Shown here piece after piece: positions 1-37,818 of a stretch of 64,000 bases of DNA (its first letter is position 1; each line of letters starts with the position of its first letter). The DNA comes from Tubiluchus corallicola (Eukaryota; Animalia; Priapulida), in the NCBI GenBank assembly GCA_030141605.1, contig JAQGDQ010000048.1, positions 372,001 to 436,000 of the forward strand, read 5' to 3'. A program made the position numbers and the translations under genes. A model generated the notes under the pieces. It did no database searches. It was not told where the DNA came from and saw nothing but the letters and a program-made list of their open reading frames with translations.

Positions 1-2502
1 TAAGGAGTCTTCTGTTCTCTAGTAATTTTTGGGTATTTACCACATTGTATAATAGTGTACTTTTGCATGATTTTCTACAAAGTTAGTAATTAGTTATTAT
101 TGGTATTAATTTGGACACATCGTTTTTCATCGACCAGCTTGATGCAGGGAATTATCGCTGCATAATTTGGAGTGTTACTAGTTTTTTCATTTCCACCTAT
201 ATGTAATTTACAAAATTAATTACTAAATGTTTCAGTTCAGATTGATCAGTTTATAAAAAATCAAGCAATTTAAAAACAATAGTAGTTTTCAAAATCATGC
301 ACAGATGCTAACAACAATCAGAGATTATATTCACTAGCTACTAGGTGCAACAAATGCACAGGTATACTTTTAATCTTAAAATTCGAATTCATTTGCAAGC
401 ACTATAGTTTGACATTTCAGTTATTCATCTTAGTGGTATCCTCTGGTATTACAGTCATGCTCTAAACTACTAATGTTTGTTAATTGTCGCACAGAAACAC
501 TGCACATTGTAAATTATTATTCCTTCTTATTTCCCAAATTCAATATTGTCAATGTTGATGTAATAGATAGCTCACTTACTACCAAGTGTAGTTTGCTTGG
601 ATACTAGTCGCACTACATTTTGAAACTTTATTGCAACAAAGTCATGTCTTCCTGAATTTTTCAGTAGCTGTACACTTTTTCTATATCTATATATCTATAT
701 GTGTATATAATTTTAGTACTTATCTGCCTTTCTAAACTTTTATTTTCTTTATAACACAAGTGAAATTATTAATTTAAATACAAATTAATTGTCTTTTCCT
801 GCCTCTGCCACAAAAAAGATAGTCAACAGGTTCTGAAGAAAATCTGAGAGAGTCATTGACCTCCTAGTAGCTTGTTGTTGAGCAAAGATTTTTTTGGTTA
901 TTTCAATTTAGAATGTCCATTTAATTTTGTTCATTTTGATAGTAGACCCACTTGGTTTACCAGAGTTGTATATTCTAGAGAGATTTTCATGAATCTATTG
1001 CACCAACTGAACACTGTGTATGCTCTCAAATTCTAGTAATCCATGACCAACAAATGTTTGGAGTAGATGTCTGAAACAGAGAAATGTGAAATACAGAATG
1101 ATGGCAATTAAACTAAAGTGCTCAGTGACCACATACTTATTTTCAGTGTAACAAAAGTTTTTTTGTACTTGATTGACGGCTAAATCAGTATCACTTGCGT
1201 TCGTGTGTTATTAAATTTTGCATTTTACCTTTGAATGCTTGATTATTCTTATACAGTGTGTCATTAGTTATTTACTTTTGTACCATTCTGAGAAAAAACA
1301 ATACGTTATTTAAATGTCTGATTGCGCGCCGGATTGCCTTTTTTCCCTAATGTTTGCATGTTTGTTATCTGTTGTGCTAACTTGTTAACATTGCAACCCT
1401 AAAGCAGGCCGTTACCTGGTTTTTTATTGTTCTTTTGTTGCAAGATTGTCACTTGCATTGTAGGAACTGCACATATCACAGTGAACTAGCAAGCTAGCTG
1501 CTGAGTTTTTCTTTAATTTTTGTAAAGTGAGGACTATTAACTGTATCTGGGTGAGTTATTTATTTAAACATAATTATCAACCTACTGACGGTGTATAGCA
1601 CGCCAATATATAAATTAACTAGTTTGGGGTTAATAGGGATTTATGATCCTGAGGGACTGTCATCCAAATGTTGGACAATGATGACCAAAGCCTAGGTATT
1701 TGTTTTATTATACACAACTAGAGATTCCAAATTAAATGAATTATTATCAAGTTTGTTAAACTTCCTTGCCATTTGCCATTGTGTCATGGCAAACCTTGAA
1801 TTGTCTAGGCACACCTAGCAAACTTGAATTGTCTAAGTCGTGATAATATTCCTAAATTTGCATAAAATATAGTTTTGTATTATCCTTGGTAAAGCTTTCT
1901 TTTATAGTATGCTGTCACATTTAGCTATGCTGCATGAGGTATGTTTAAATATAGGTAGAAGACATACTACACAGTTTTTGACTGTAGTGGCTTTAAGGCT
2001 TGTGGGTGCTCAGTAAAAAGTACAACATTACATTATAGTGCTAAATTAGAGTAAATGGAGTATTTTGGTTGTGAAATATAACATTCTTAGATACTTTTTG
2101 GCTTCATTTTTCTACTTTTTTTGTTTTGCTGATTCTGTTTCTGTATTTTTGTTTCTGTTATTATTTTGGCATCTGCTCACTTTTTGCCTTTGTTTGAGAT
2201 ACTGAATTATAGTTCATCTGTGCATTGATTTTGTCAATGTGTCACCTAAAAATTCTTTGCATTTATTGATAAAATCAAAAGAATACTGCTTGGGGATTAG
2301 TACTTATAAGCCTGCCCTATAATACGAGAATGTCTTGTAATGTTTCTGCATTCCATGTTACGTATAACCATACTGAAGTGATGTTAGAAATCAATTTTTA
2401 ATTTTTTTCTGCTGTTTGTATAACTTAGAGATTATTCCACCAATGTGGATTTGCTAGATTAATGCTGCTGCTTCGAGAGTTGTAGCTGTTCTAATTTTGC
2501 AG

Positions 2503-4800
2503 GGTCAAAGGGAATCCAGTTTGATGATATTACTTTGGAGAAATTCCGAGACAAGCGTAATTATGATGTAATGGCTTATAGCCAAACAAAGTTGGCCAAC
2601 GTTATTACAGCCAACCAACTAAGTGACCATTTGAAAGGTTTGTAACAAGTACATAGTTAAATTCCTGTTATGATTGTTGGCTTTTTAAGACATTTGTGTT
2701 TGTTTTATTATCTAATTGATTTGTTTTAGTCTAGAAATGCCCAGAGTCGAAATCTATATTATATTACGGAACTTTGTTGATGTCATTTGTTGTATACATA
2801 CCATCTGGTACTCTTATCCATTCTCTGAATTTGAGGGGAAGGCATTAGTTTCTAAAACTTACAGTAGGTTGGAAGCTTACAGTGAAAGCGGCAGAAGTGC
2901 CATGGATGCCAATGGAAGTGAAATGATACTGTAAGATGGTACTGCGAGACTACAAGTCAGCCAAAGACTCGTACTTTTTAATAAAATTAATTGCCATATC
3001 ACTGTACATATATCGTACCAGTGACTAATATGTAATCTACCAATAAACTGCCAAACAATATGATTAATTTGATGGAAATGTTACAGGTTTTCTGTAATGA
3101 AAATTGTTTTAGTTAATAAACTTATCACTTCCCTCTGTAATGCTGTTATAATATTATAATACATGCAGAGCTCTGTGCTATTTTTAACCTAGTTCGTGCT
3201 TGTCAGTCTGATTGTTTATTCGCTGCTTCTCAGCCTCGATCTCAGCAGGGTTTCGAAAGGTCAGTCTCGGTCCTGATCTCGATCTTGTAACTTTAGATGG
3301 GCAGAGAAATTGCAAACACTGCCTGGTGCATTAAAAGAAGAGTGCACTCCCTTTGGTTGAGCTACATTAATAAATACTGTACAATGTTGAAAACCTTGTT
3401 TAGACTTTATCATTTTAATTTGACATGTGGCAGTGTACAAGTAAGAAGGGTGAGTATGTAGGGCTTCCAGAAAAACATCTACTTTGTTGCAGCTTGTTTT
3501 ACATAAAATTACAAAGATCAGCCAGGCAAACTCTCGAACACTAAAACTGTAATTTAATTTAGTTTTAAATTGTAGATTTGCTAATAAGTTTTGCAATTTT
3601 TTATTTTTTTAAGTAACACCATAAAATCATAATTATATTGTTCTTTTCTAGGAACAGGTGTCACTGCTTACTCACTCCATCCGGGTGTCATTACCACGCC
3701 AATCTGGAATACACGGCTGATATACTTGTTTAGCTGGATTATGAAGCGAAGTAGTGAAGGAGCTCAGACAACTATTCATCTTGCAGTTGCCGATGTTGAA
3801 GAACATTCTGGAAAATATTTTTCGTATGTCATCAAAGTACTAATGATATTGTTTTCTTGCTTTAGATAGTGTTGATGATAGTTGATGATGACAATGATGA
3901 CGATGACGACGATAGATGATAATGATAGAGGATGGTATTTAGTTGAATTTATTGGCAAAATGTGAACAATTGTTTCTTCACAATAACTTAATTTAAAGAG
4001 AATGATATAGTACTGAATGATTTATAACATCTGAAGTATTTGTAATATCTATAACGAAAACTCGTGCAAGAACGAAAGTAGAAAGTACTTAATTAGACTG
4101 TAACATGTTAAAGTCCCTATGTTACAGTTTGAAATGTGCACATTTATTGGCTTAATTGTAACTAAATGTAATTCTAATTTCATTGCCATTACCAAAATTG
4201 ACTTTTACAAAATTATCTTGTTGTCTGCATTACTCTAGACACTGGCCAGAAAATGTGAAGCATCTTTTCTTAAAATTCTTCTTTCACAGTTCACTTTTAA
4301 ACAAGGATGCATATCATTCTGACACTAACATACATCACTTGATACTTGTACTTTGCTAACCAACACTTACTGGCATAATAACAGAAGGTCTTATGGCGGC
4401 AGCTTAATTTTTTGACAGTTGTTTGCAGTCATTACCATGACAACATTTTGGTTCACAATTTTGAGATTTAAAAACATTTCTAGCAATGTTTTTGTATGAC
4501 TGAAAGTTTTAAAACACTGTGTTCTTCACAACTTTAAATAGAAACAAGTTTAAATACATTATTTTACATTTTTAAAAATTCTCTGATTTATATAGTTTAA
4601 ATAAAACCTAAATTTCAACTCAGCATTATTATTTGCACTGCGAACAGGCTAATTATCTCCGAATTATAATATGTTACAGTGATTGTGCTGTTAAAGAGCC
4701 ATCTAGAGATGCCTATAATAAGGAGGTTGGTAAAAGACTATGGCAACTCAGTGAAACTATGACAGGATTAAAGGAAAGTGAGCAAGCAGATGGAAAATAG
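2503..4800 (+). CDS. RDH11/12/13/14-like SDR gene 1, C-terminal cassette 1 (5' exons lie upstream of the window)
   Basis: Exons 2503-2637 (SKGIQFDD...AYSQTKLANVITANQLSDHLK, catalytic YxxxK), 3652-3823 (GTGVTAYSLHPGVI...EGAQTTIHLAV...GKYFS) and 4680-4800 (DCAVKEPS...RLWQLSETMTG...stop). All introns are GT-AG with continuous phases 1/1/2. AATAAA at 5114. Confidence 0.92.
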
Positions 4801-6000
4801 TCACTCAATGGATCTTAAATTATGTAAATCCAACTGTCATCGTACAGTACCATTTAAAAAACGTTTGAGGGCACATTCTTGTAAAAATTATTCTGATAAA
4901 TTCCAACTGTTGTAGACCTCAATAATATCTTTCTAGTAGGTGACTAATTTTGTAGGTTTTGTGCAAGATTCGTAAATAGTAATATTTTATTAGTATTATA
5001 TTTTCTTAATTGTACAGCTTTAACTATGATGTTTTACTGTACACCTCTATTGAAAACACTTTGTTTGAAAGAGTGCTTTGTAAATATAATAATAATATTA
5101 TTATTAAACAGCAAATAAAAACATTTTATTTCACTTTATCTTTTGTCATAAATACAGTAATTCTTGAAGTAACATTTGTTTACACTTTCACTATTTACAG
5201 TTAGTATAATTTTTTGATGTTAGAATGATTAATTTTTTCATGACTGTATATGTAACTGTAAGTTATAACAGACTTTGTAAAGTGCATCGAGATCACCTGA
5301 TGTGCTGTATAAATAATAAATTATTATTGTTGAATTAAAGCCTGGTATTTTATCTTCTTCATTAAATAGTAAATGATTGTCGTATGTCCCGTGTTCTTTC
5401 TTTGTGTTCATTTTGTCATAACAAATGTAGCAGTTACTAATTATTTTTCTTAATTTCTTATCAAACTGACAAGACTACTTGAAAATCTTTTGACTTTGTT
5501 CTTGACTGAAATTCTGAGATTAAAAGATCGTCAACCTTGATATGCTTCGTTGACAGCAAACAAACAAGAGGTTACCAACTGAAACTAAGAAACAAAGATT
5601 GTGCAGGAAGATTGGAGAAGTAATTATTGTGCTTCTATGATTATAACTTTTGCAACAAAAGTGGCTGGTTTGCAAAACAGGCAACAAAATAACAACGTTT
5701 GCAAAACTGTGACTAAATTTAACAGGTGGCATGGATGGTACCAGCAATGGCAATTTTTTTAGCGCATGTGGTAGAACTTTTTCAATCATGTTTCAACTAA
5801 TTTTTACCAGACTAACAAGTCGGTTGATGCCACTGCCATTTCTCTTTTGTCAGGTGAATTGAATAAGGCTTTATTGTTCTCAATGTATGAATTTTTTTGT
5901 TTTTCTTAATTATCCTAAAAAAACACCGAATATTATGCTATCTCATTGACATCACTGTTTTACAAGTTGTGTTTCAATTTTGTTGCGTCTGTTTTTTTAG

Positions 6001-8950
6001 GGTGTCCAAAATTTGAATGGGACGATTTAAACTATGAAAGAAGAAAATATGTTTTATATGGACAAGGGTCCTACAGTCAGTCAAAACTAGCTAATGTTGT
6101 CTTCACTCGTCACCTGGCTACACTCTTAAAAGGTAATATATTAAAATAGCCTATTTACTAGTAGGTCATCATTTTATAAGCGTAGAGAGATACAAACTAG
6201 CACAATTTACACATGTTGCTCCTTTGTAACTCTTCTTCAAAGCATAACTAGAAAAGACATAATTGCAATCCACAATAATATCCCTTATTTATAATTATTA
6301 AGTTCATGTAATGTTTTGTTTGTTGAAGATGCTTGTAATTTCAATTTCAATTTTTTCAAGTTCGTGCAATGTTTTGTTTGCTGAATATGCTTGTAATTTC
6401 ATTTTCAATTTTTTCAATTTTATTTATTTCACATCAATAGTATATCATAGTAACATACATATAATAATTGCATAATCATTGCACAATTTTAGTTCCAATT
6501 AATACATTTTACATACATATAATAATTGCATAATCATTGCATAATTTTAGTTCCAATTAATGGATATAATTATAACAATTAGTATCTATTTATGATTATA
6601 CTACTGTAGCAATTCTAGAAGTTTATAATAGCTTGTAAGATCAGCTGAATGTGAAACAGAAACAAGGAGGAGGAGGAGAATCTGTAATGACGGCATTTCT
6701 CGTGGGTGATAGTAATTAGTAACTTATGCAATACGAGTAAGAAGCGCACTTAATTTTGGTAACGTTGCGAGACTGATACTAAGGCGGTTTATGTGTACCT
6801 GTTTCTGAATACAAAGCTTACTGAAAGATCAATTAACCTTTCAATGCTTTTATTCTACTGACAGACAATCTGAGTAAGCAAGAAAAAAAGAAAAAAAATA
6901 CATTGCAATAGTTAAACATGGCCATTTCAAGAATTACAGCACAAGTTTTTGGTATCAAACAGTAACCCCATAGTAACTGCAGTTTTCACTGTCTATAAGA
7001 GTTTGTGCACAAGATATCACCAATTTGAGTAATCACAATTGAGCTCAGAAGTAAACTGTTACTTATCTCTGGAGTGAGCGCTCACCACGTCAGTCCATTG
7101 GCAATCACTGGGGGTACACCCGCCATCTCTCCAAGGAAGGAATACTATCTCCAAAACATCGGATACCATGCTCGACAGTACTAGATGCCAGTCCGTCCAC
7201 ACCATGACAACAAGTGCTGGATTCCTTATACTGTGTAGAAGGCTCAAAGTCGTTTTTTTCTCCACTCAATTGCATCACAACACATTGTCCATTAGGATAG
7301 TATTACACCATTTACCACTGTCCAGAACTTTTCACAATAAAACATCAGTTCAGCCAATTTCAACAGATGAATCTCAGGTTTGCCCTCAAAATTATAAACC
7401 CAACATTTTAACTGCCATCATTTTCCAGACTATTCTACACACTTCTCAATATCAAAGGCACATTTTCCTGCTACTGGAACATTTTACTACATTTCAAGGT
7501 AGTTTGATACTTTAGACAGGTAACTATAACACTATATAGGCTGAATGAGAAAGCAAAACACCCCTGTAATAAAGTAATAAGGCCGAAGCCAACACACTTT
7601 CAAAATGACCTGCATAACACTGACATTTAGGTTACCTTTGGGGCAGATGTAGTTCATGGGTGCCTAGTACATTATTACAACAACAGCAGCAAAAAATAAA
7701 GTAAACTATGCAGGTAGTTTCCTTATACAAAAACAAACTAAATTAAGCCCCTTCAATCGAATAAAACATTTATCATTGAACCGAATTTGTATAGTATAAT
7801 GTACAAAGGTGGTTGCTTGTAATGTGTAAGAACAAACTTTAGCCAAGGGGTGGACATAGTCTGGTCCATCACAGAATCTATACACAAAAGTATGTAGAAA
7901 AGGAATAAGTAAAAAAATGTTATGCCTAAAATGAAGAAAGAACAGAATAAGATATGAGAATTATAGTTATTATGACAGCTTCAACATGCAACCATGTGTA
8001 ATAATGAATTCAGTAAATGATACAATTAAAAATAGTTGCGTACTTTAGACGAAAAATGTTTGTTTTTTAATGGCTATACTGTGTGATTTTTATTATTATT
8101 ATATTTATTCGATTTATAGGTTATAGTAGCAGGAAAATTTGTTTTTCAGGTATACAGGTCTTGTGAGGTTAAACATATTAGTTGATTTAAATGTCATCAC
8201 TGGTGCTATATGTTTTTTCAGATTCTGGTGTTGTTGTTAATGCTTTACATCCTGGTGCAATATGGACTAACTTGGGGAATGCAATGCCATGGCATTGGAG
8301 ATTGTTATTTATACCATTAATGCCACTGGTCTTGTTTGTGAAATCTGGCAAACAGGGTGCACAAACCAGTATCCATCTAGCTGTATGTGAAAAAACAAGT
8401 CAGGTCACTGGAATGTATTTTTCGTAAGTACTGTGCTTCGTTCTGTGCCATGTTGTGTACGAATTAAATCTTTTGCCGAAATAAGCTTTAAGTACATCCA
8501 CTGCTGGTACTTATTCATTGTGTGTGGCTAGCAAATATGTGTCGGGTTCTCATATAGGTTATTAGTATGTCATCTTCAGTTCTCGCCTGTTGTGTATATA
8601 TTTGGACCACAAATTTTGATTATCTTCTATTATTGTAATACATTATATTGTTGATTTTGGTATTGTAGTTTTATTACATTATTCACGCCCGTCTCCTATG
8701 ACACTGCTTGTAACAGTTGTTGAAGCAATACCAATACAAAAGTTGCACCGTGCCATTTGCTATGCATATAAAAATTGAATTTTTGTAGTGTTTTAGTAAG
8801 TTAATTTACTTGTTATTAATTTAACAAGTTAATGCAGTATTATCTTTTTTATTCAGGGATTGTGCCATAGCTAAACAGTCAGAAGTTTCTAAGAATGACG
8901 AAGTAGCAGCAAAATTATGGGAAGTTAGTGCACAAAGTGTAGGATTATAA
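6001..8950 (+). CDS. RDH-like SDR, C-terminal cassette 2 (probable alternative 3' half of gene 1)
   Basis: Exons 6001-6132 (CPKFEWDDLNYE...SYSQSKLANVVFTRHLATLLK), 8222-8423 (SGVVVNALHPGAIWT...QGAQTSIHLAV...GMYFS) and 8857-8950 (DCAIAKQS...KLWEVSAQSVGL stop). Frame and splice sites are intact. AATAAA at 9310. No N-terminal exons seen between 4800 and 6001. Confidence 0.9.
6310..6561. repeat. Two adjacent tandem duplications of about 58 bp each
   Basis: aatgttttgtttg...caattttttcaa x2 (6310-6420) and acatacatataataattgcataatcattgc...ccaattaat x2 (6453-6561). Confidence 0.8.
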
Positions 8951-9490
8951 TTTATATAATTTGTAAATTGTCATTCAATTAAACCTGCTTCAATTTAATT
9001 ATTTTCTGTGAAGTTAAGTTCTGTGAAGGACAAATCATATAATCATGCTGTACATCTTTGATTGTCTTTTCCTTGTAGCATGTGTTTTTTCTTAATTTAT
9101 TGATTTATTTTTGTTTTAAAAGCAATATTAAATTTTGGTTTATTCTTAACAGTTATTGTTAATTTGTTAATGATATTGTTGTTTAGTAAGTAACGAAGTC
9201 CATAGTGATAAATGTAGCACATGTAAACTTGATAATCATTATGTATAGTTAGTTTTATTAAACAAATATCAAAAAGCGGCATGTCTGGCAATGCACGAAC
9301 ACTTTTGATAATAAAGTTTTAATTTCATTTACCAAATTCAACATTTTGATTATTACTTATCATATTGTGTTTCTGATGCCTATAATGTGTAATGTATATG
9401 TGTGTATGTACGTGTTCATTTATAGCTATGTTGTTTAATTTGGCGATCAGTGGTTCACATATATTGGTTTGTTTTTGCAGTTGCTCTGTG

Positions 9491-10079
9491 CAGTGGCATA
9501 GCAAGTGCTTGCGGCACCCAGGGGCAAAAAAAATTCTGGTGCCCTACCCTTTTAATGTTTTGATCTTTTGTTTCATGGATGAAGCCACAAATTGTACGTG
9601 TTTTTGCGTACCTGAGTTCGGCTTTTTTTTAAATGACAGGATAAAGATAAACGAATTTTTTCTAAGCATAACTCTTCTATGCGTAAGTTGCTCATAACAC
9701 TGCAATCCTTAAACATTCAGCTCCAGCATCAATACATGCAAAGATTATGAAAGATACAGAACAAGTCACAATAATACAATTGACATTTAGAGAATAACGC
9801 CAATGTTTCCCCCAAAATTATCAACCTGCTAAGCCACACGACACCCTACACACCATTTAGTAACAACAGCCTTTTTCTAGGTTGTATGTAGTAAAATCAG
9901 TTATGATGATCTCTGCTACGCAATTTTGTTATAGTATGAAAACTTTTGTTAATTGCTTTCTTAATGTCGGATTAGTAATTAATAATTAACAGTCGTTGAA
10001 CTCTAGAAGAATTTTGCGCCCTCTCGCCCTTGTGTCTGGGGCCATTGCCCCCTATTGCTTCCACCTTGCTATGCCTCTG
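9491..10079. mobile_element. Non-autonomous hAT-like element (MITE)
   Basis: 15-bp terminal inverted repeats cagtggcatagcaag / cttgctatgcctctg (1 mismatch). Flanks gctctgtg / gctgtttg are a plausible degenerate 8-bp TSD. Confidence 0.65.
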
Positions 10080-10240
10080 GCTGTTTGGCCATATGCAAAA
10101 TACATTTTCGTAGCTTCTTTTTTAAAAAAATTTCCTTTTAACTTCTGTCATATTGCCAGTAGCTCTCTTCATGTTTTCTTAATTTTCTAATGACTTCAAA
10201 CGAAGTTCTAATAACATGAATAATATTACAATCAGCAATA

Positions 10241-10433
10241 CAGTAAAACCTCTTTATATGGCCCACTTTTAGACTCCAGAAAAAATTGGTGTTGAACGAG
10301 TTTGGAATTATAATGAGGTGCATGTCACACATGTCTATTGAAATATAGACATTTTGTTTTGCCAGAAATGTGGGCATTAAGCAAGGTTGGGAGTAGTACA
10401 AGGGGGGTGCAGTGTTATAACGAGATTTGACTG
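10241..10433. mobile_element. pogo/Tigger-type MITE
   Basis: TA-cagtaaaacctctttata ... ttataacgagatttgactg-TA: imperfect inverted ends with a TA target duplication. Confidence 0.6.
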
Positions 10434-10957
10434 TACTTCATTAACCTTTTTTGTTGCGGTATACATTTGTAGCACTATGTAAGCACCTAGAATTATCTGC
10501 AACTGCCATCGGAAAGGAAAATTTGAATGTCCCTTTCAAACACGTCTGTAGTTGGAACTGATGCTGCACATGCAGTACTTGATAAGCACAGTAATGGACG
10601 AAGTGAAAGCTTTGTTTCTAAGGAAAGCTTAAGCATAATCATATATAAATATCTACTGACATACTACGAGCCTACTCTACATTGATAGACAAATCCATAC
10701 GAATCTCCAAAGTCTATGCAATAATGCAAATTCATTAAACTACAGATGTTGGTAATTATAAACCTACAATGTCAACAAAATGAGCTTTACATTGTTATCC
10801 ATTGCATTGAAAAACATGACATAACTTCTATCTTTTGGCTAATGCTGTATAGCAAAAATCTGTTTTTGAGATTGTTTAATATTTGTTCAGTAAATCTTGC
10901 GAATTGTGTGTTCACAGCATATTTTCGAATATTGAATATATTAATTGTGTGTTGCAG

Positions 10958-11098
10958 TTTCAAAACCAATAGATTGGGAAGATTTGAACTATGAAAAACA
11001 CGAGTATGTTGAATCGTCCTTGAAAGGCGGCTCGGCATATGACCGGACAAAACTTGCAAACGTTTTGTTCACAGACTATCTTGCAAAGAAACTACAAG
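10958..11098 (+). CDS. Orphan RDH catalytic exon A3 (no B/C exons of its own)
   Basis: ttgcag acceptor, open frame [46 protein letters not shown], gtaaga donor. Close paralog of exon 19635-19772. Confidence 0.75.
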
Positions 11099-11110
11099 GT
11101 AAGAAAGATA

Positions 11111-11272
11111 CAGTTGTTGCCGTTTATTAGACTCATGGTTAATAGAATCAGTTGCATGATTAACTCAAAAACTGAGTCAATAGTTTGCTCCTTCTATTCA
11201 AATGTATATAAAACTGTCAATAATAGATTCTAATGACTCCTCCTAATTGACTCAGTATTTTTGCTTCGAATG
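11111..11272 (+). mobile_element. Isolated left end of a pogo/Tigger element
   Basis: Starts TA|cagttg and aligns with 11493-11645 (tagactca.ggttaataga, cttctattcaaat.ta.ataaaa, taatt.actca.tattttt). Confidence 0.6.
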
Positions 11273-11490
11273 TAGGAAAGTTTGGTACAAGTAATTTTGG
11301 TACCGGGAAAATTTGGTACTAGGAATTTTTGGTGTGCGCTAATTTTGGTACTGGTAAATTTGGTACTATCATCTCAAGGTACAAGGAATTTTTCGTACTA
11401 GAAAAATGTGGTACGAGGAATGTTTGATACGAGGAAAATATGATGCCAGGATTGTTTAATACCAAGAAATATTGGTACAAGGAAGTTTTG
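11273..11490. repeat. Degenerate minisatellite, ~16-17 bp unit (GGAAAATTTGGTACNA-like)
   Basis: Roughly a dozen imperfect adjacent copies of the aatttggtac core. Confidence 0.7.
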
Positions 11491-11492
11491 TA

Positions 11493-12394
11493 CAGTAGTC
11501 GCTGCTTAATAGACTCACGGTTAATAGACTCAATCGCTTAATTGACTCAAAAACGCCTGGATCGGGCCGCTTCTATTCAAATATACATAAAAGCTATCGG
11601 TAATTGACTCAAATAACTTCCTTAATTAACTCAATATTTTTCCTTCATGTACTTAAAATAAGACATTTGTATGTGCCCAAACAGCCTTTCCTACTTTTAT
11701 GTCATCTTTACATCCCTTTTGTGCATTATATATATATAGAAACAAAGACCTAACAGTTAAGGAGAAACTGAAAATTTTAGTGCAGTACGATAACTTCCAA
11801 AGATGGGACAGAGGTGTGCAGCAGCGCAGGTGAAAATTTCCCAAAGTACTCTCGGCAGAATATTGATAAAACGATTTGAAATTGAGCTGTCAGCAAACCA
11901 AAATGAGAATCTAGCATCTAAGAGGCGATGCACAGGAAAAGACTGTAAAGTGGAGTCAGCATTAAAAGTGTGGTTTACAAATGCACAAGAAAAAGATGCT
12001 CAGGTGAATGCTCCTTTAAGGCATCAGAAAGCAGAAGATCGGAAAAGAAGAATTTGTTGCAACAGAGGGGTGGTTTCAGCAATGGAGAAAGCGTGAAAAC
12101 ATCATGTACAAATGTATCCATGGTGAGAAAAAAGATGCTGATGTTCCAGCTGCTCAAAATTAGATGGAAGAGTGGCCAAAAATTATTGCAGTATGTTCAC
12201 CCAACATTTACAATGCGTATGAAACTGAACTTTATTTTAAAGCTTTGCCTGAGCACACCTACTTATTTGGGAATGAGAATGCAAAAGGGTGTAAGATTTC
12301 AAAAGAACGTGTGACAGTGCTATGCTGTGTAAGCATGTCAGGAAAGAAGGAAAAACTGCTGGTGATTGGAAAAAGCAAGAATCCTGCTATGTGA
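11493..12394 (+). mobile_element. Truncated, frameshifted pogo/Tigger (TIGD-like) DNA transposon
   Basis: TA|cagtag terminus. Fragments in several frames: CENP-B-type HTH (KDLTVKEKLKIL...ISQSTLGRIL; VESALKVWF...QKAE) and the start of the DDE domain (NIYNAYETELYFKALP...KERVTVLCCVSMSG...LLVIGKSKNP). Confidence 0.88.
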
Positions 12395-13811
12395 AGGAGC
12401 TTTTGAGGATTCCAAACTAGCAAATATTCTCTTCACCTTTAAACTGGCAAAAAAGTTGTTAGGTATTTTTACTTCTCGTACAATGATAACCAAAGTTACA
12501 TGAAACAGTGTCTGTGAATTATTTATTGAGACTAAACAGTACGTGCTCATTCCTGGTGCACTAGACATTGTCCTGCAAAATAACTATATCCACTTACTAA
12601 TTCATTTTAATAATGTGTAATGCCTAAGAAATAGCACAGGACTGCCAGGGAATCTTTGAAAAACAAATCAACTTCACAAGATTGCATTCTCATTATGGAG
12701 CTGTTTGGAAAATTTTTACGCTATGTATTCAAATTAGTTAATAGTCATTTATCTTGTTTTGACCTCAAAATGGTGGGACTGTCATCAAAAATTGAGCTTA
12801 AAGCAGAAACATTCTATAGCTGTCACTAAAACTGACTCAAAAAACTCTAGTTGATCTGGGCTGACCATAAGTGCCATCCTGTTTTTCTTCAAGAATGAGT
12901 GGTGACAAAAAATGTGTTTGCTGACCATACCAGTAATCTCAATAAAGATTATATATTTTTGTTTTTTAATGTTAATTAAAAATAATGTTTTTTCTTCGTA
13001 AAATTTGTATTAATTTAATGCTTTCTGTAAAAATATCATTGTATGCTCATGGTAAATTTAGCAATAAATTCTAATTCTAATTCTAAATAAATGAAGATTA
13101 TGTATAAAAAAAACTGAAGAAAGATAGGTACATTTATTAACAAGCTAAATTATTTTTGCGACCATGTCCTTGTACTTGTACTTTGACCTCTGTGTTGCTA
13201 CGCTGTAGTACTAATAACCACCAGACTCACTCACATATAGCTTCCAGTCTTGTATAAGATCAAAGTGTACCACTTTGCTGGATAGTGATCAGTAAGTTTT
13301 CAGGACACATTTTTGCAATTTTTTTAATAAGTTTAGAAAGATAAGAATTTGCAGTTTAAAATGTGTTGTTGTGGCAAGATATGCTTGAATTGAAATTTCT
13401 AAGCAAGATTGTTTTGGTAATTGTATGTTTGTTACTGATACAGCAGTTATATTGTTAATATACAGTTAAAGAAAAATCTCATTTGAAACTGATATAGAAA
13501 GTAATCGTTCGATGATTCTTTACAAATATCAAATGTTCTACCAAGTGTCATAATTGGCATTTTTAACGTCTGTTATACAGCTTTTTACGTCTTATATTGT
13601 AAGTTACTTTTAGGTACTAAAAATGTAGTTGCTATAGTAATTGTAGCAAAAATATTTTACATAAAATAAGTAAAACGACTCCTGTTTCTTTATCTGCTAA
13701 AATGTGCTGCTCATACCCATAAATAGTTGCGAAAATAACTTAAACAGTATTTCCACTTAGGTTTGCACCAGTTTTGTGCGCTGATGAGTCACAGTAACCC
13801 ATATCATCAAT

Positions 13812-16800
13812 ATGGCATCTGTTTTATTTAATTTGACTTTTCCGTCTGCAGAAGATGTGACAAATTGGATCAGTCAACATCCAGTTTTTGTTGGATCATC
13901 ATTATTTGCAGGTGGATAATAGCTTTAGCTTGACTTTCAGTTTATTGAAGTTGTAGATACTATTGATTATTATGTTGCACACATACTGTTAAAAAAATTA
14001 GCTTGTTAATTAATCTTTTTGTTTTGTAGGTTGCAAAGTTGCAAAGTGGGCTCTTGCTAGTTTGATTTAGGCAGTTTGATTGTTAACAGATTTTCAGTAG
14101 ATTTATTTTTCAGTTTATTCTGAATCACAATATTTCGATTGCACTTTAGGCTTTGGATATTCGCAAACTAACAAAATTAGCTTTTTTGCTGCATACAAAA
14201 ACTGCCAAATGACTATGATTAATAGATATTATTGAACAGTCTTCATTGAGAATGAGTCCATGATCATAGAAATGAAATTCTATAATCAGGATGGATTTTT
14301 AGAAATAAAAATTGTTAATCGAGATGCTGAAACATAGAGGGAAAAACCGTATCTTTTACACCCACTCACTCTACCTGGTGTAAAAGCTAGCCAATATAGT
14401 CTTAAAGGGTAAATGATTATAATACATATATGTACACTGTCAGTAAAATACATGTAAAGCATATGTACTAACAGACTAAAATTCATTAAAGAAGTGCGCC
14501 CGTCGTTTACAGAGATGGTACTGATGTTCAGTCTCACGGTTTGGGTTCAAGGCTGACAAGAGGTTTTGATTAAGTGCCATTGTTATGAGAAATGTAACGA
14601 ATTTTATGAGAATTTCCAATGGTGTTCGCTTACATTTCATCCCCCTAAAGCGTCGCTCTCATACTGTGAGACTGAACTCACTACGACCCCTGTCGCCACT
14701 GGTCTCACTTCTTTAGTGAATTTAGCAAGAGAAGTGCAGGCTTATTGATTAATGTTTAATTTAAATTTGTAAATTCATATAAGTATAATAGCATACATTG
14801 AATGCGTGTAAATTTTCATTTTCTTTATGAGTTCTGTTTTTGTTTTTAGTTCTTGCATTAGTGGTTGTAAGAAGATGGTTTGCTGGTGGTCGCTGTACTA
14901 GTAAAGCCAGACTTGATGGTAAAACAGTTATTATTACTGGAGCCAACTCTGGCATTGGATATGAAACAGCAAAGGACCTGGCTAGACGTGGTATGGAAGA
15001 GTGATCACTTATAAAACTCAACATAGAATTTCTGTTCACATTTCAAAACTCTGTTATGCATTGAAGAATTGTGCTAGCCTCTTGACTACAAGTATGATGA
15101 GAATCTCTTGCTGTAGAAACCTTACTGTATTTGGTTTTATAACTTGACCCACTCATCAAGCTAAAAGTAAAATTAATCTACCTAGCGTTTTGCAATTTAT
15201 TCTTGTATAATACACTGACATCACAAAGTCAAAGTCAGAAGCTTGGCAGAACATTTGTGTGCTCTGTACTTACACCCTGTACAACAATTGACTTTGTGCT
15301 AAATGTATTTGCACAAAATGATATGAACAGTACATTACGAGGCGAGCACTATCTACTGAGCACCACAGCGTCGATTTTGCATAACCAGGTGTTTACGTTT
15401 CAGGTGCGCATGTAATCCTTGCTTGTAGAAGTAAAGAGAGAGGTCAGAAAGCAGCCAGCAGTATCAAAGAAGTCACTGCGAACAATAATGTCGTATTCAA
15501 ACAGCTTGATTTGGCTTCATTTGCGTCTGTCCGTGCCTTTGCTGCAGATATTTTAAAGACTGAAGCAAGAATAGATATTTTAATCAACAATGCAGGTAAG
15601 AATGGCTTAGTGCAAAATTTGCTTTCTCGTCTTGTTTTTCAATGTGCAAAGTTTAGTTCCCAGCCGAGTATTAACGAATCATAAAAAAGGCATAGTTGTG
15701 TCTTTTGACAAACATGCAAGTTTACTACATGCAAAGTTACGTAAAGACATATGGGTTTAACTTGTCATCAACAGAGGCTCTACTGCTTTACGTTCATTGT
15801 AGATTCAACTTTTAAATAGGTATTATCAGTAAAAAAATTAAGAAATGGTCTCAAGAAAAACAATAGGTGATACACAAAATGCCTTTGGTATTTGGTTATA
15901 TGATCACCTCCATCGATATGGCGTAGTAGTTTGATTTCTTGACTCTTGGACAGTTGTGGTACATGACAATGTAATCGTTAGCTATATTACAGAACCATTA
16001 CAAAACCTGTTTCCAAATTAGTAGGTCTTCCATAGAGTATGAGTGTTTTTAAGTCTTACAGTTCAAGTTTTGTAAAGTCTGCAACGGGCAGGCTGGTTCA
16101 GGTATTGATTAGATTTGATTAATTTTATAGATCTCGAGGAAAATTTGCTTTAGCAAATACAAGACCTGCCATTCCGTGCTGTCATTTTACAATGTATAAA
16201 ATATACTACAGATACAAATTGTGCTAATGTCTGATAAATAAGGATAATGCATGTGCATTCCATACATTCAATTAATAAACGCTGTCTTTAGAAAAGTGTA
16301 CCACTCTGTAACAGCCTCAAAGCTGAAGGCATAAAACAGTGCCTACTTCTCCCCCTGTTAACAACTCTAATCAATAAGATTGTAGTGGAAATGAAACTGA
16401 GCAAATTAGTAATGTGATATTGAAACAAAAAACATAAAAAAATAACCTCCACTGTGAATGCTTGTTAACATTTTTTGACCAAATGCCCTGCAAATCTAAA
16501 AAATTTTGCTGCCAAACAAATAAATGTTATTTGGCTGGGAGTACTATGTACTGTACTGAGTACATGTACTGAGTCAACAATGTTGCTTACTTTACTTTTC
16601 TGGTTTTCCACTGTTAGTGCTATATAATCAGTGTTTCATTTACTTCCTGACAATTATAACCAGAAGCCAATTAGCTCATCTTTGTTTATTCTTCAGCACT
16701 CTTGTTCACATGCAGGCCTAAAAATGAAGCATGTAAATCATTTAACCCATTTCTCATCAAAATTTTATTCTTCAACATGGATTGACCCACATATGAAGAC

Positions 16801-19800
16801 CGAAAATGGCCATGAGATGCAATGGCCCATTAATCATTTAATCCATTACTGTATTTTTCAGCATGGATTGGTCCATATACGAAGACCAAAGATGGGAATG
16901 AGATGCAGTGGCAAGTCAATCACTTGAGCCATTTTCTACTGACAAATCTTCTACTGGATAAGATTAAAGCTTCGGCACCTGCCAGGATTATCAATGTCTC
17001 TTCATTGGCACATAAATGTAAGTCTAGCAAGTGCTTGGTTAGTTTTTGAGCAATTTACAATGTGTTTAGAACAGTTTTTTCAGTACTTGCAGCTGTTTTC
17101 ATCAGTGTTATTATGTCAGTTTGTTAGCATAGTAAAATTTTTCAACGTGGTTCACCACACTCTACTGTTCACTTTTCCAGTGAAGAATTGATAAAAGTCA
17201 TCTATTTCATGATTAATGACACTTAGAACTGCTTTGGTCCTAAAGTAATCTTTTGGAATTTACTACACATTATAAAATACAGCCCTCATGCACATTTTAC
17301 AAATGCTGGTAACTAGTTTCATTATTGTGTCAACTTTTTAGCATGAATCACTTTTATGCTGTCCACTAATGCAATGAAATGTCGCTTCTTTAATGAAAAA
17401 TGTAGTTACTTTATTGGCTAGTAGACGTGACAAATGCGTTACACTAAAACACTCAACATCTTTGAGTTTCAATATTAGAATGTGGTTTAATGTGAAGAGG
17501 GTTGCAAACTTGTACCAAAACTGCACTATAGCTTGACATAACTATGCTGCTAATGGTACCATTACCAGAGTGTAGATCAGTTGCAAACTTGTGCCAAAAA
17601 ACTGTACTATAGTTTGACGAAAACATGCTTCTAGTTTTGTACATTACCAAAGTGAAAATCGGTTGCAGGAGCCAAAATTGCACTATAGTTTGACATACCT
17701 ATACTTCTAACTTTGACATTACCATTGCCAGAGTGAAGTTTTATGCTAATATAAAAATGTTATGTAGTGCACAAAAATGCTGCCTGTTGGAAATTTCAAA
17801 TGCAGTATTTTCAAGTTTTGTACATTTACTGTTAGTGTCTTCAGATTGTGATACAAAAAAGGAATTTTCTGGTAGTGCTAGACTATTTTGTGTGTTTTTC
17901 ACTGTTTTATCTTTGTTTTACTCTTTCTTTTTTGTTTTTAAAACACAAATGAAATTATTAATTAAAGTGAAATTAATGCCCAATTAGGCCATATGATCTT
18001 TTCCAGCTTCAGCCACAGAATAGATTGTTGTCAGTTTTTAAAGATAATATGTGAGACAAATTAATTGCTAAGCCTAATTGTTCAGTGAATTTCAAGCAGC
18101 CTTCTATTTGTGCACTTTAAATGGCAGACACAGTATACCAATTGCCAAACATGTGCAATCTGATTCCATAATTTGGGCGATTTTCCATAATGCTGTTGCC
18201 CATTGAGCTAACATGACTAAAACTGTTGAAGAAATCTTATGACCTAATTGATTAAATGTAGACACTTTTATTATCTGATGTAGTTATTTACATTATGATA
18301 AGTGCTTGATTAGTATTTTCTGCTTCGTGCAATGCTGAAGAAATTTAGAAAACAAGACCTTCCTTAAATTTCCAAATGTCTTTCTTGCTTAATAATTTTG
18401 AGCTGTGACAACTTGTACCCCCAAGCAGCCCTCGCAGAGGCTAAAATTTAATTGCTGCAAAATTATTGCTTGTGAACATGGAGTAGAAGTCTGTGGGACC
18501 ACACTTACCACGGCAAACTGCAAGCGAGCAGCTGAGTTTTTTTTGAGAATTGTTAATAATATTTTGGTGAGTTATCTAGTTGTCCCAACATTCAGTGTGA
18601 CAATTTTGTTTATAACCAAAGATGCTGTTTTCTGGATATTTAGTGAGGCCAATAATTTTTTAAAAAGTACTGTACAACTTCCAATGTTTGTTAATTTGCC
18701 TTGCTTGTAATTCTTTATTATGTTATGCACATAACAGTTACCTTACAACAGAGTTGACTGATTTGTGAAAAAAGGTGTTTTATATTATAGTGCGTAGCAG
18801 ACGTCATGTGATCTACTTAAACATAGTTAGTGCAGACTGTGCAGTCTTTAATTGGAGTGTCTTTATTTCAGCGATAAAACTAATATATGCTTACAATAGT
18901 CTACTGAAATTTTCGACAGTGGAATGTTACATTATCAGAAATTGTTCATGTTTGTTTTCATTCTTTTTTTATTATGCTGATGTCTTAATTGGAGCACTTC
19001 CTGTTAAACTACACGCTCTTATTAATCAAACGCCTATTCTTTTTAAAATTGCTTGTGCATTCTTGTTTAAAATCTAGCAAGAATTTTGGCTTCGAGTTTT
19101 CTATAAATTGTTCTGTCATAGCTGTTTGATTCAGTTACCAGTAGGCTTAGTCACTGCAAGCCTAACGCCACTCACAGTCCGAAAAGACAATCCACAATAT
19201 AATATAAATAAACTGAAAATAAACAGTATATGTAAATTCAGAATACAGTGTATTCATTATAATGAAAATGATGCCTAGTTGCTGCATTTTGCAGATGAAA
19301 TTTTATTATTTGCGTATTTTGAGTAATTACTTGATAGGGTCACCAAATTATTGTTCATTATTGCTTAGAATTTCTTGCTTTTTGAGTAAAACCTACCTGT
19401 TGGTAAGATGCATGATATTAGTGCAAGTTTTTCTGCTGTGTTTTGCATTTAATTAAGAACACAGCACTGTTTCCAATCTTTGGCAAACATTTAATTTATG
19501 TAACTCATTTTTGTTGTTTAAACTAAATTAGATGAATTGTGTTATATAAATTATATGATTAAAACTTTATTCAAACCCTATTTTTTCAAGCACTGTATGC
19601 ATGTTCTGAAGCAAAACATTTTTGTGTGTTACAGATTCAAAACCAATAGAATGGGAAGATTTGAACTACGAAAAACATGAGTATGTTGAAATGTCTCTGA
19701 AAGGCGGGGCATACGAACGAACAAAACTTGCCAACGTTTTGTTCACAGACTACCTTGCAAAGAAACTGAAAGGTAAGAAAGATATTGTAATGGAGTGATG

Positions 19801-20133
19801 GAATAATTTTACATTTACTAAGTTTAGAAATAAAGCATGGCCAAAAAAAGGAATGTGGTAAAGTGAGGGCTGAACCTGGGTTTGAACCCATATTAATGGA
19901 TTGGAAATCCAGCATAATGACCACACAGCTTTTGTCATCAGGTAAGGTTTTTACCCAAAATCAAATGTTAATGAAGCATAACCTGAGAGTGATGACTATT
20001 TATATTCTTCATTTCGTTATCTGTGAGATATATACTCATATCGACATTCATACTCATGTTGACAATCATACTGTTTTTTCATATTCGTTTTGCCTTCTAA
20101 GTCTAAAATGTGAGAAACTGGGCCTGGGTGTGT

Positions 20134-20219
<86 letters not shown>

Positions 20220-20366
20220 TGTTGTAGTAGTAGCAGCAGTAGGAGTAGTAGTAGTAGTAGTAGCAGCAGCAGCAGTAGCAGTAGCAGTAGCAGTAGCAGT
20301 AGCAGTAGCAGTAGCAGTAGCAGTAGCAGTAGCAGTAGCAGTAGCAGTAGCAGTAGCAGTAGCAGT

Positions 20367-20431
<65 letters not shown>

Positions 20432-21554
20432 GAGCAGTAGTCGTATAAATTTATTTTACTATGTAATTTATATTATTGTACATTTGCCCTCAACAGTAAT
20501 TGTCATTTGAGGATTCCAATGCATGTTTTATAGGTGTTAATTTTAGAACACATGCAAACCTAAAAACTGAGTGTTAAGTGACACGCAGTCGATTTTGCAA
20601 ATTTGAATTTTGATTGCATTTCAAATTCTGATTATAATCTGCTATTATGACTTGCAGGTACATCTGTGACAGTGAATAGCCTTCATCCAGGTCTAGTTAA
20701 AACAAATATTGCTCAAAATCTTAGTTGGCATAGCCAACTTATTGTTGTTCTATGCTATCCGCTGACTTTTATGATAATGAAGACACCAGAGGAAGGTGCT
20801 CAAACCACAGTACACTTAGCTGTTTCAGAAGAGGTGGCAGATGTTTCTGGTGCTTACTTTGCGTAAGTTTTACTGCTGTGAAAATGCTAACTTCATTGCT
20901 GTTCAAACATTAGAGCGTGGCATACCTATTTATTGTAGCCAAATGTGAATTTTCATTCTTCCATTCGTTCGTTCATGATCATTTTATTTTCGATATTCAA
21001 TTCAATACATCAGCATTTTTAACATAAATTTTAAGACACTTATTGTTGGGGAATCCAGCACTAAAGCATAAACCACGAATGAGGCATTAGTCGCTTACTA
21101 ATTTGACTGTCTTTGCCAAGTAGCTTATTAACCAGACAATTTCAATCACAAATTCACAACTACTGTACCAAACTTCGCACTTCGAGTTTCGTTAACTCAT
21201 TACCAGAAGTTAATTTGTTCACTGCATAAAGACTTCATTGTAGCTAACTAATTCAAAATTGATAGCAGTAAAATAGGCTTTTGCTTGGAATTTGTATACA
21301 TTGTAGAATTATCAAATTATTAAACATAGTGACAGCTTTTTATAATATTTCAACCTTTTTTATGTGACTTAGTATGACGATGTTAGTAGCCTACACATTT
21401 TCATGCCTGTCTTTGTGTAGTCAGTATTTTTAATTTTAACAAACCTGTATATTTCAGAGATTGCAAAATTGTTGATAAAGGAGATTTGTGTAATGATGAG
21501 ACAACAATGGCAAAGTTGTGGCAAGTGTCTACAGAAGCCGTAAAATCGGAGTAA
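13812..21554 (+). CDS. Retinol dehydrogenase 11/12/13-like SDR gene 2, about 342 aa
   Basis: Exons 13812-13911 (putative ATG exon, weak gtggat donor but in phase), 14850-14990 (RRWFAGGRC...[25 protein letters not shown], TGxxxGxG), 15404-15595 (VILACR...LDLAS...IDILINNA), 16862-17017 ([22 protein letters not shown]...[11 protein letters not shown]), 19635-19772 (AYERTKLAN), 20658-20862 (NSLHPGLV...[11 protein letters not shown]) and 21458-21554. Total 1029 nt in frame. AATAAA at 21581. Confidence 0.9.
14476..14725. mobile_element. Foldback/MITE-like element with ~60-bp imperfect inverted repeats, in an intron of RDH gene 2
   Basis: ctaaaattcattaaagaagtg...gttcagtctcac pairs with gtgagactgaac...cacttctttagtgaatttag. 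Confidence 0.6.
17501..17735. repeat. Three tandem copies of an ~80-bp unit
   Basis: gttgca...ccaaaa.tgcactatagtttgac...cattacca.agtg repeated three times. A single homologous copy lies near 391-450. Confidence 0.75.
19866..19935 (-). pseudogene. tRNA-like remnant (tRNA-derived SINE head or pseudo-tRNA, TCC anticodon-like loop)
   Basis: Minus strand reads ...gtggtcattatgctggatttccaatccattaatatgggttcaaacccagg. It has a B-box-like gggttcaaaccc hairpin, but the acceptor and D stems are degenerate. Confidence 0.35.
20134..20442. repeat. Compound microsatellite (AGT)n/(AGCAGT)n/(AGC)n
   Basis: Direct reading; intronic in RDH gene 2. Confidence 0.97.
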
Positions 21555-22986
21555 GAACCATTACATTGCACTTCTGCAGAAATAAAGTGTGGAACATTAA
21601 TCTAGTGCATGCATTAAATCCTGATATTGTCTAACTACAGAAAACGTCTGGACATAACCAGGAAGCTATTATAGATTTGCCATAGAACAAAATTAATGAC
21701 ACAGCTGTTGTAAAAGCTTGAAACACATGCAATGTGAATTTGCAATGATTTTGTAATTTCCTAGAATTAGGTGGTGACCAATTTAATAACTGACTGTATT
21801 GTTTAAAACAGTTATGCTCTAGTGTTTAAATAATAGAAAAGTTCAGTTTGTGCTGCCTTCTTAACCAGTTATGTAAAAACTTATTATATAAAAACCCATT
21901 TGTCACGAAAAGCTTTATTCGGATTGCTTATGAGTTTAATTCATTTACCCAGGTAAGTTTAATGTCACATTAATGTGTTAGTTGTGCAATTCAAGCTGTT
22001 CAAATTATCCAACTTATGGATGCAGATTATAATTTATAATAGGTCATACATGTGTGCACACTGAACAAGGTTGATACAAAATCTGGGGCAGTCCCAGAAA
22101 CATCAAAATCGGTCAAATAAATTAGTTTGGATCAAAACACAGTTTGTAAATAGTGAGACTTTTTTTACGTTTGTCATCTCTTTTTTGTTTAGCAAGACAT
22201 CTGTCAATTTTCTGTTTGCTTGAAGACAAAGAAGATTACTCCGTGGAAAATACCTGCATTGTAGGTCAATAAACTGTCTAGTTAAAAGTGTTTCCTTATC
22301 ATTATTAGTATTTTCAAAGAATGCATTAGATATTTGTAAATATTAATTTGTCACATTTCATTGGCTTTTTTGTACTTTCATTCTATTATTTTGTTCTGCT
22401 GTTATTCTGAATAGTCAATAGCCATAGGTGAAGCTGTAAACTGTAAACTAAAAAGCTGTGATAAATGGTAATATAATATAACAATCATCAGTTTTAATAA
22501 ATGATTTTTTCTAGTGCCACTGATTTTTATGCATCACTCTATGTTATCATACAGTTACGTAAATGAAAATATTGATGTTATTAGTTATCAGTATCGAAAG
22601 TAAATTTATTACCATCTTATATACACTATTTTTGCTCGTATGTTTATTCAAAAACCATATTAGGCCCACAGTGCTTAAATTATAAGTAGTACATGCAGTA
22701 ATATAATGAGCAGCTAATCTACCTGAAGTTGACAAAATCCTGGGTTATTAATGCTTAATTAAAATCTAGCCTTTCGTACTTTACCTCTGGCACTTTAGCT
22801 CTTTATTACCTCTGTTTTAATAAATTTTACACAAATTATTTGACAAATCTGCAATATTGCGATATGAAATTAATCTGAGTACACGAGTTAAAGGCATAAT
22901 TATCCCTATAAATCCTATAAAGCAGAAGAGCTTATATTATACACCACATCCATTTCAGATGAATTCACAGCATTTTCTTTTGTTAG

Positions 22987-24381
22987 TGTATCTAAGATTA
23001 GGCTGTGGTGACTTACACTTTGAAATAAAGAACTACATTTCATTTTGCATTGGTAAGGTAGCTTATGAGCGATGCAAGCCGACAAATCTGTGAACTAGCA
23101 AAAAGGCTCAGGTATGTTTACTTCTCATACAGTGCAATGGTATTGGCATGCAAATTACTAGACACGTCCTGCAAAATTTGGTTTCTGTTTTGAAAATACA
23201 TAACAGGTTGCTGCGTGGTAATGTTGCAACTAGTATGTTTTTTGCTATTAGTGGCTACAGAGTTGTACCCAATTGTTGCCTATCTTTAGTAATAGATGGC
23301 GCACAGTGGATGAATAGCTGATCCATACAGATAAAAAGCCGTGTTATTTATGCACGTTCACATGCTGCAGTGTGCCGTAAATGTGACATACCATAAGAAC
23401 CAGATCGGCTCAGGAAATTTAGGCCAATGTCAATTTTGGTCCCTGCTCCTCCCATCAATATGGCAGTGAAAACAGTACATTTTAGGACATTCCACTACAT
23501 GTATGTAATATTATAGTCATCCAAGGCATCTTTTAGAGGTTTTAGTTAGTCCCGACTCATCAGTTTGAATATCAATGTTCCCACTCTATTCGAATAATAA
23601 CACTCAATATGGTGGCCAAAATGGTATCCAAAATAACATCTGCAATATTTTCAGCTAGTCCACAATATTTTTTCATATTAGTTTGGAAACATCCTGCAGC
23701 TATTGAGCTGAGACTTGCCACGTTCGTAGTACATTGATTGTCTAAAAATTTCAGCAATTATTAAAAACGTTGCAGTGACAGCTGAATATGAGAAACTGTG
23801 GGAAAATGCCTGAAGTTATGTATCGCTGCACAAAACCACATTTACTAGACAAGTAGATTTACTAGCACTACTAGCACTTTAAAAAGTTTCAGATTTTTCA
23901 GGGACTGATGTAAGACTGAACTCTCTTCGTCCATCCACCAGCAATCTAAACACATGGAGGTTGTACTTGTCAGAACATTTAGACATTTGGTAACTAAAAC
24001 AGAAGGAGGCGCTCAAACGCCTAATCATTTGACTGCTTCTGAAGACGTAAAAAGCATCTCTGGTTCATACTTTGTGTAAGTAGTCTCTGTGATTAGCTTA
24101 TTTGCAAGTTGCTTATCATTATCCTGTCTACAGGAGGCAGAACACAGAGCACTTTTACCAATAACCAACATAAATATTTATCTTTATTTAACTGATATTG
24201 ACAAAGTATCATCAAAAATAACGTTTATTATGTACTTTGGAGAGGTTTGTGAGCAAAATTCTATCCTCCATTGATTGTAAGAGATTATGTCATTGCAAAA
24301 GCATCAGAAATCAGTAGGGATGGGGGAAACCCTGTCAGTAATATGGAAAGTTCCTGTAAAAGTCTTTAGATTAAAGTGTGA
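22987..24381 (+). pseudogene. Degenerate RDH C-terminal cassette 5 (pseudo-exons A, B, C)
   Basis: 22987-23111 (GDLHFE...AYERCKPTNL then stop/frameshift, ELAKRL, gtatgt donor); 23902-24075 ([10 protein letters not shown], stop/frameshift, EGGAQTPNHLTASEDVKSISGSYF, gtaagt donor); 24282-~24381 (DYVIAKASEIS, frameshift, IWKV). Each aligns to the matching intact cassette exon. Confidence 0.75.
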
Positions 24382-34825: not shown

Positions 34826-34909
<84 letters not shown>

Positions 34910-37324: not shown

Positions 37325-37438
37325 TATCATAATTATTGCTATTATTACTACTACTACTATTATTATTATTATTATTATTATTATCATAATTACTGCTATT
37401 ATTATTACTACTACTACTACTACTATTATTATTATTAA

Positions 37439-37523
<85 letters not shown>

Positions 37524-37525
37524 GG
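37325..37525. repeat. (ATT)n/(ACT)n microsatellite
   Basis: Direct reading. Confidence 0.95.

Positions 37526-37570: not shown

Positions 37571-37818
<248 letters not shown>

Follow-up and report, generated by a model that had tools for sequence, protein, structure and literature searches.

Tandem C-terminal cassettes and a putative shared N-terminal half in a retinol dehydrogenase-like gene of Tubiluchus corallicola

A stretch of 64,000 nucleotides of the priapulid Tubiluchus corallicola (contig JAQGDQ010000048.1, positions 372,001 to 436,000 of the forward strand; hereafter the window) contains two intact three-exon C-terminal halves of a short-chain dehydrogenase/reductase (SDR), one after the other and without an N-terminal half between them. 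The window is AT-rich animal DNA (33% GC) with intron-rich genes. We propose that one gene here encodes two enzymes, a shared four-exon N-terminal half being spliced to either of the two cassettes, and we give this reading a probability of about 0.85.

Exon structure of the cassettes

All exons described here are on the forward strand. Cassette 1 consists of A1 (2503..2637), which carries the catalytic helix with YSQTK, B1 (3652..3823), which holds a strand, a short substrate lid and the GAQT helix, and C1, whose coding part up to the stop spans 4680..4800. Cassette 2 consists of A2 (6001..6132; catalytic helix with YSQSK), B2 (8222..8423), with a long substrate lid, and the coding part of C2 up to its stop (8857..8950). 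A third catalytic exon, A3 (10958..11098), carries YDRTK. All these exons have AG/GT ends, and their phases are those of exons 5-7 of a complete paralog downstream (1/1, 1/2, 2/stop). An earlier note on this DNA had described two complete, divergent, open cassettes and a third catalytic exon in tandem, with phase-1 acceptors fitting the exon-4 donor of the paralog, and both descriptions were confirmed. It had also given each cassette its own stop and AATAAA. The stops are present, but AATAAA (at 5114 and 5315 behind C1, and first at 9310 behind C2) occurs once per 780 nucleotides in the window, so that those at 5114 and 9310 are at chance frequency and no evidence by themselves; contigs cannot show transcript ends.

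Joined in silico to the N-terminal half of the paralog (13812-17017), each cassette gave an open frame of 338-342 amino acids. The two cassette models and the paralog scored 352, 363 and 370 bits against a profile of 325 positions made from four full-length homologues, from position 13 to about 320, and both cassette models covered the profile as well as the paralog itself did. The cassette exons taken alone matched no Pfam family. Cassettes 1 and 2 are 40% identical. Identities between cassettes (40-43%) are no higher than those to outgroups (32-45%), so the cassettes are old; a tree of three cassettes and three outgroups has too few members to establish that they share an origin.

The catalytic residues align with N162, S189, Y214 and K218 of the homologous protein P0005. 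Asn164 and Ser192 are in the N-terminal half of the paralog, and Tyr and Lys are in A1, A2, A3 and the paralog's A4. In a confident model of P0005 (predicted local distance difference test score 86.5), the junction of exon 4 with the A exon falls just after the strand of Ser189 and before Tyr214/Lys218, and the part that corresponds to a cassette comprises the Tyr214/Lys218 helix, the next strand, a low-confidence lid and the final helices. The best named matches were retinol dehydrogenase 12/13/14-like proteins (60-70% over exon 3), suggesting that the gene encodes a classical SDR of the RDH11-14-like kind with predicted retinoid/carbonyl reductase activity.

No N-terminal half between the cassettes

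Between the C1 stop and A2 there are 1,200 nucleotides, and in the paralog the N-terminal half occupies 3,206 nucleotides and intron 4 another 2,617. The earlier note had reported no TGxxxGxG, NNAG or HFLLT exon between the cassettes and had suggested a tBLASTn search of the gaps with the N-terminal half. In a permissive tblastn search (E up to 100, word size 2) and with nhmmer --max, no homologue of exons 1-4 was found in 1-13800, in agreement with its statement. Apart from the paralog exons, the only significant match to the N-terminal half in the window was a decayed partial copy of exon 4 (16766-16847). The same arrangement, a cassette part without an N-terminal half before it, recurs between C2 and A3, between A3 and a further A-exon stump (A5), and behind the paralog.

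The assembly was compared with contigs of a DNA run, X1, which were assembled from reads separately from the genome; X1 may be the assembled sample itself. Three X1 contigs that overlap one another cover all of 1-6448, each with 0-1 differences. Of these, one spans 3884-6448 with 0 differences at a depth of 174, the depth of other single-copy X1 pieces being 165-175. Since a single contig bridges the gap between C1 and A2 without a difference at single-copy depth, the mis-assembly considered in the earlier note is unlikely there. The listed X1 pieces leave 6448-7987, 9563-10332 and 11147-13048 uncovered. A repeat element lies in the intron between A2 and B2 (6625-7907); joints in contigs of X1 and X4 skip or loop the roughly 1.2 kb that separate the two ends of this element.

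The upstream intron and the putative exon-4 donor

The window begins inside the upstream gene, and 1..2502 would be its intron 4, colinear with intron 4 of the paralog. The Smith-Waterman score of 9-2330 against the paralog intron (17232-19185) was 276, compared with 66 +/- 10 for shuffled sequences (maximum 102 of 30). The stretches before A2 and A3 showed no intron-4 homology in the same comparison (scores 61 and 59, at shuffle level; 64 +/- 11 for A2). The homology of 9-2330 therefore places a shared exon-4 donor about 200 nucleotides before the window: the nearest anchor points to about -206, and farther ones to -264, -172 and -15. The first X1 contig extends 204 nucleotides beyond the window start and then ends, as we infer it would if the assembly graph is broken by an exon 4 that is nearly identical.

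X1 contains one further copy resembling exons 2 and 3 (>=85% identity, depth 196), which is probably the N-terminal half of the upstream gene. In X6, a run under the same species label, there is a single exon-3-like contig, and six of its seven listed letters agree with the other exon-3-like copy of X1. In the paralog intron 4, three short direct repeats were seen at 17501-17740, one 17-nucleotide unit of which is identical at 399-415 upstream.

Splicing in RNA contigs and sequence constraint

The runs X5 and X6, both labelled as the same species, differ from the window by about 10% in exons. Four X6 records lie on 2400-6300. In one X6 contig B1 is joined to C1 at a GT..AG joint, preceded by an A1-like lead of 29 nucleotides, and the C1 stop is crossed. 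Another X6 contig runs from 6042-6132 of A2 on into B2 sequence, and C2 is covered by a separate one (8857-8946, 3 differences). Both cassettes are thus spliced in RNA of related lineages. A contig of X5 with exons 3 and 4 terminates exactly at the position of the exon-4 donor, and the Logan protein P0026, which is identical to cassette 1 at 116 of 141 positions (A1 being 79% identical to the start of P0026), begins at the first codon of the cassette. Each of these two ends may be taken as a weak hint of a splice branch at that point.

Five of the six readable differences in cassette 2 were synonymous, where the neutral share is 0.25 (p 0.004), which indicates, at the level of sequence comparison, that cassette 2 is under constraint. 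The first in-frame Met of cassette 2 is residue 65 and the catalytic Tyr is residue 24; therefore, cassette 2 needs an upstream coding exon. In cassette 1, nine of 13 changed codons were non-synonymous between lineages, several of them around the lid. The fast-changing parts of cassette 1 are 3710-3755 and 4713-4726, near the lid and the last helices, and the few readable changes of cassette 2 differ from these.

An intronic block at 5836..5881, on the forward strand and 120-165 nucleotides before the A2 acceptor, is kept in the diverged X5 lineage: its 46 nucleotides show four differences, and the 113 nucleotides that follow are unalignable (one contig, depth 4.4). The block has a pyrimidine tract followed by CAG and a donor-like GT, an arrangement that would suit a recursive splice site or a frame-shifting micro-exon of 31 nucleotides ending at 5884. 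A complement of 27 nucleotides between 5859-5885 and paralog exon 3 (one of 310 inverted pairs) ranked fourth in the window, not above background, and was rejected as evidence for RNA pairing.

Proposed switch between the cassettes

Under the proposed mechanism, exon 4 would be joined to A1-B1-C1, followed by the stop and a probable poly(A) site, and the transcript would end before cassette 2. When A1-C1 and the poly(A) site of cassette 1 are skipped, exon 4 would join A2-B2-C2 instead. The switch would then be a choice of terminal exons and poly(A) site. The reading frame does not enforce exclusion, because the A exons are all multiples of three and all 36 of 36 A/B/C exon combinations are open.

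The constant half would provide the membrane anchor, the NAD(P)-binding fold and the catalytic Asn and Ser, and the cassette would add Tyr and Lys, the substrate lid and the final helices. In SDRs, the C-terminal lid region determines substrate choice. As the cassette carries these parts, the prediction is that the two isoforms act on different substrates.

Several points weigh against the reading of one gene with two enzymes. No contig of X5 or X6 crosses the junction of exon 4 with A1 or with A2; the A2 piece of X6 begins at 6042, neither run gave an A1 piece at 80%, and the only A2 piece of X5 is unspliced, at a depth of 4.4. X5 also gave no piece of cassette 1 at 80%, and paralog exon 5 was covered by neither run at 85%; these are gaps in coverage and carry no finding. 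Because X5 and X6 are about 90% alike to the window at exons, these runs come from another lineage, and their status as RNA is an automatic guess. The N-terminal half of the upstream gene is outside the window and was represented by that of the paralog, and one less than 85% identical would escape the comparison with contigs. The synonymous count covers the six listed differences; a further five of seven in A2 and three of three in C2 of X6, and one of two in X5, are unlisted. Pairing of docking and selector RNA between the block at 5836-5881 and intron 4 was not detected, as 18 of 25 and 25 of 25 shuffles paired as well, the true partner exons being outside the window. The locus history described below leans on weak matches of dead A exons (E 1.4e-4 and 0.007). 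The earlier note had proposed the shared N-terminal half with swappable cassettes; for two cassettes, evidence from the genome, from comparison and from RNA contigs supports this well, and its link from exon 4 to 6001 appears in no contig.

Alternative explanations

The likeliest alternative, which we consider quite improbable, is that cassette 2 is a leftover: a complete tandem gene would once have stood here, and its front half would have been lost recently in this lineage but kept in that of X6. The unseen junction of exon 4 with A2, and the origin of the RNA in another lineage, would fit it. So would the fact that tandem whole RDH-like genes are common: 12 of 170 proteins had repeated A- or B-like stretches, and eight of these 12 were models in which tandem genes had been fused, with N-half motifs found between their repeats. 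The cassette identities, no higher than those to outgroups, point the same way. However, three or four separate clean losses of front halves would be required, each sparing the acceptor; no intron-4 remnant precedes A2 or A3, the splice sites and frame of cassette 2 are intact, and the block before A2 is retained in X5. Moreover, an A1-type intron is joined to an A3-type exon in the paralog.

Less likely still, cassette 2 could receive its 5' part in trans, either from a distant front half or from a spliced leader, or could be translated as a C-terminal fragment. No contig shows what A2 is joined to on its 5' side, and an acceptor-like site lies at 5854 inside the conserved block; against this, a cis donor in the right phase would lie on the same strand, about 6 kb before A2, and a product joined to a leader would start after the catalytic Tyr and therefore fit poorly with a conserved A2. 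That the whole layout is an assembly artefact with dropped front halves is very improbable and, given the contig from C1 to A2, refuted for that interval. In its favour, X1 may be the assembled sample, and B3 and C3 may be missing near repeats in the uncovered parts.

Exon A3 and the repeats behind it

A3 is intact. Its equivalent in the paralog is exon 5, to which it is 88.6% identical in nucleotides (19622-19784); the intron is 72% identical. Between the two, 10 synonymous changes over 27.8 sites and five non-synonymous changes over 107.2 sites were counted (ratio of non-synonymous to synonymous rates about 0.10), which indicates that A3 evolved under constraint. No B or C exon was found by nhmmer after A3 and before the next gene. 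In place of B3, C3 and the front of A5 there are high-copy repeats and a decayed piece of a DDE transposase (11109..12390), with very high summed depth in X1 and a Pfam DDE_1 match of E 0.003, below the cut-off of that family. The broken DDE_1 piece adjoins the A5 stump and is presumably pogo/Tigger-like. The stump (12385..12462, forward strand; nhmmer E 1.4e-4) is cut on its 5' side, keeps its donor and has Phe for the catalytic Tyr; 12442-12485 match 23093-23134 at 79.5%.

The earlier note had counted A3 as the start of a third enzyme. As stated this is unsupported: A3 lacks B and C exons and corresponds to paralog exon 5, so a third isoform is not established. A3 was probably orphaned recently. 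Its use by read-through into the paralog exons B4-C4, which would be in frame, is unlikely, and so, to the same degree, is a loss of B3 and C3 in the assembly, conceivable because 11147-13048 is unbridged in X1. Somewhat more doubtful is a combinatorial library of active sites, in which A3 would be spliced into B4-C4 across the front half of the neighbour and A, B and C exons would be mixed between cassettes; if that were true, one SDR front half would serve at least three catalytic halves from two genes.

The tandem paralog and the history of the locus

The paralog (13812..21554, forward strand) encodes 342 amino acids in seven exons (13812-13911, 14850-14990, 15404-15595, 16862-17017, 19635-19772, 20658-20862 and 21458-21554). 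Its N-terminal half has TGxxxGxG at 14936 and NNA-A across exons 3 and 4, and Pfam adh_short matches exons 2, 3 and 4. A dead cassette without an N-terminal half follows at 22977..24377 on the same strand, with A (22977-23112), B (23890-24076) and C (24280-24377) in order, recognized by nhmmer (E 0.007, 9.6e-12 and 2.4e-4) and bearing stops or frameshifts.

The same intron 4 precedes A1 in the upstream copy and an A3-type exon in the paralog. The A5 stump of the upstream copy is the same A exon as that of the dead cassette. Because paralog exon 5 matches A3 and not A1, and because of the additional dead cassette, the ancestor is likely to have had a single front half followed by four back halves, which would later have been divided between tandem copies. 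The tandem duplication would have ended just after the last A exon and been followed by reciprocal loss. The upstream copy would have retained cassettes 1 and 2, with A3 and A5 as stumps, and the downstream copy cassette 3, with the dead further cassette.

Protein searches with B2, exon 3 and A2 returned no close full-length relative (2 of 13, 18 of 263 and 0 of 1 candidates), and none of the 21 loci from a metagenome scan (29-67% identity) was close. None of the 170 proteins mentioned above (best 150 of 3,632 matches) had one clean N-terminal half followed by two complete C-terminal halves.

The decayed part-copy of paralog exon 4 (78% over 82 nucleotides) is followed immediately by the live exon; it has its own acceptor and is out of frame when joined on. 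Intron 1 of the paralog contains a nested inverted repeat at 14479-14723, with arms of 46 and 29 nucleotides that are 72-76% complementary, possibly a small non-autonomous element. Long trinucleotide microsatellites were seen at 20125-20441, 37330-37820 and 54480-54640. The neighbours assigned by Pfam are, in order, a Memo-like gene (about 28000-36700, reverse strand), a cofilin/ADF-family gene (39947-44040, forward), which we take to be glia maturation factor-like, and a cornichon gene (49700-55000, reverse). From 55686 onward on the forward strand there is presumably the start of a kinesin-like gene, whose tested exon had no Pfam match.

Comparison with known systems and implications

To our knowledge, RDH11-14-like SDRs, which the gene resembles in motifs, length and best named matches, have one C-terminal half per gene. 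The locus of T. corallicola has the layout of a 3' tandem cassette cluster, with homologous multi-exon terminal cassettes in tandem, matching in phase, each with its own stop and with no constant exons between them. UGT1A and the clustered protocadherins, which the earlier note had named as parallels, also combine constant and variable regions in each locus, but there the 5' exon is varied by promoter choice; the present locus is the mirror image, and 3' clusters are closer. In the metabolic enzyme GSTD1 of Anopheles, a common 5' exon is joined to alternative 3' exons, and the C-terminal substrate-binding part is swapped by splicing. The present locus differs from it in having another fold and three-exon cassettes that are 40% identical.

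Splice variants of GSTD1 in Anopheles gambiae are mentioned in PMC1761136, and PMC4195677 lists isoforms of Drosophila GSTO2 with a common exon 1 and separate 3' ends. Closer examples are the Drosophila genes pip (Pipe sulfotransferase), PGRP-LC and CG42235, which are 3' tandem cassette clusters according to PMC6191721 and PMC3291829. Their variable part is described there as a whole recognition or sulfotransferase domain, whereas here the division runs through a single Rossmann domain, between the catalytic Ser and Tyr. Competing docking and selector RNA pairing, which has been demonstrated in some such clusters and need not occur in every one, is shown for all three genes in PMC6191721 but was not detected here. 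The division between tandem copies resembles the separation of splice isoforms after gene duplication, for which PMC4494069 describes vertebrate paralogs that keep different ancestral homologous exons of a mutually exclusive set. Here, cassettes 1 and 2 would have stayed with the upstream copy and cassette 3 with the downstream one. The present case differs from that description in its three-exon terminal cassettes, its tandem duplication and the stumps that are still visible.

The earlier note knew of no such case for RDH-type SDRs, and our literature search, which covered titles and the start of abstracts and not subscription journals or supplementary gene lists, which could include SDRs, likewise found no SDR with 3' tandem cassettes. 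Gene finders would label cassette 2 as a truncated gene or a pseudogene, therefore similar loci may be overlooked.

The locus shows a multi-cassette gene divided between tandem copies. If the proposed reading is true, it would be a natural swap experiment, in which a single cofactor half, with its catalytic Asn and Ser, works with two halves that are only 40% identical. The share of the C-terminal half in the substrate choice of SDRs would then be directly testable, in a family most of whose invertebrate members have no known substrate.

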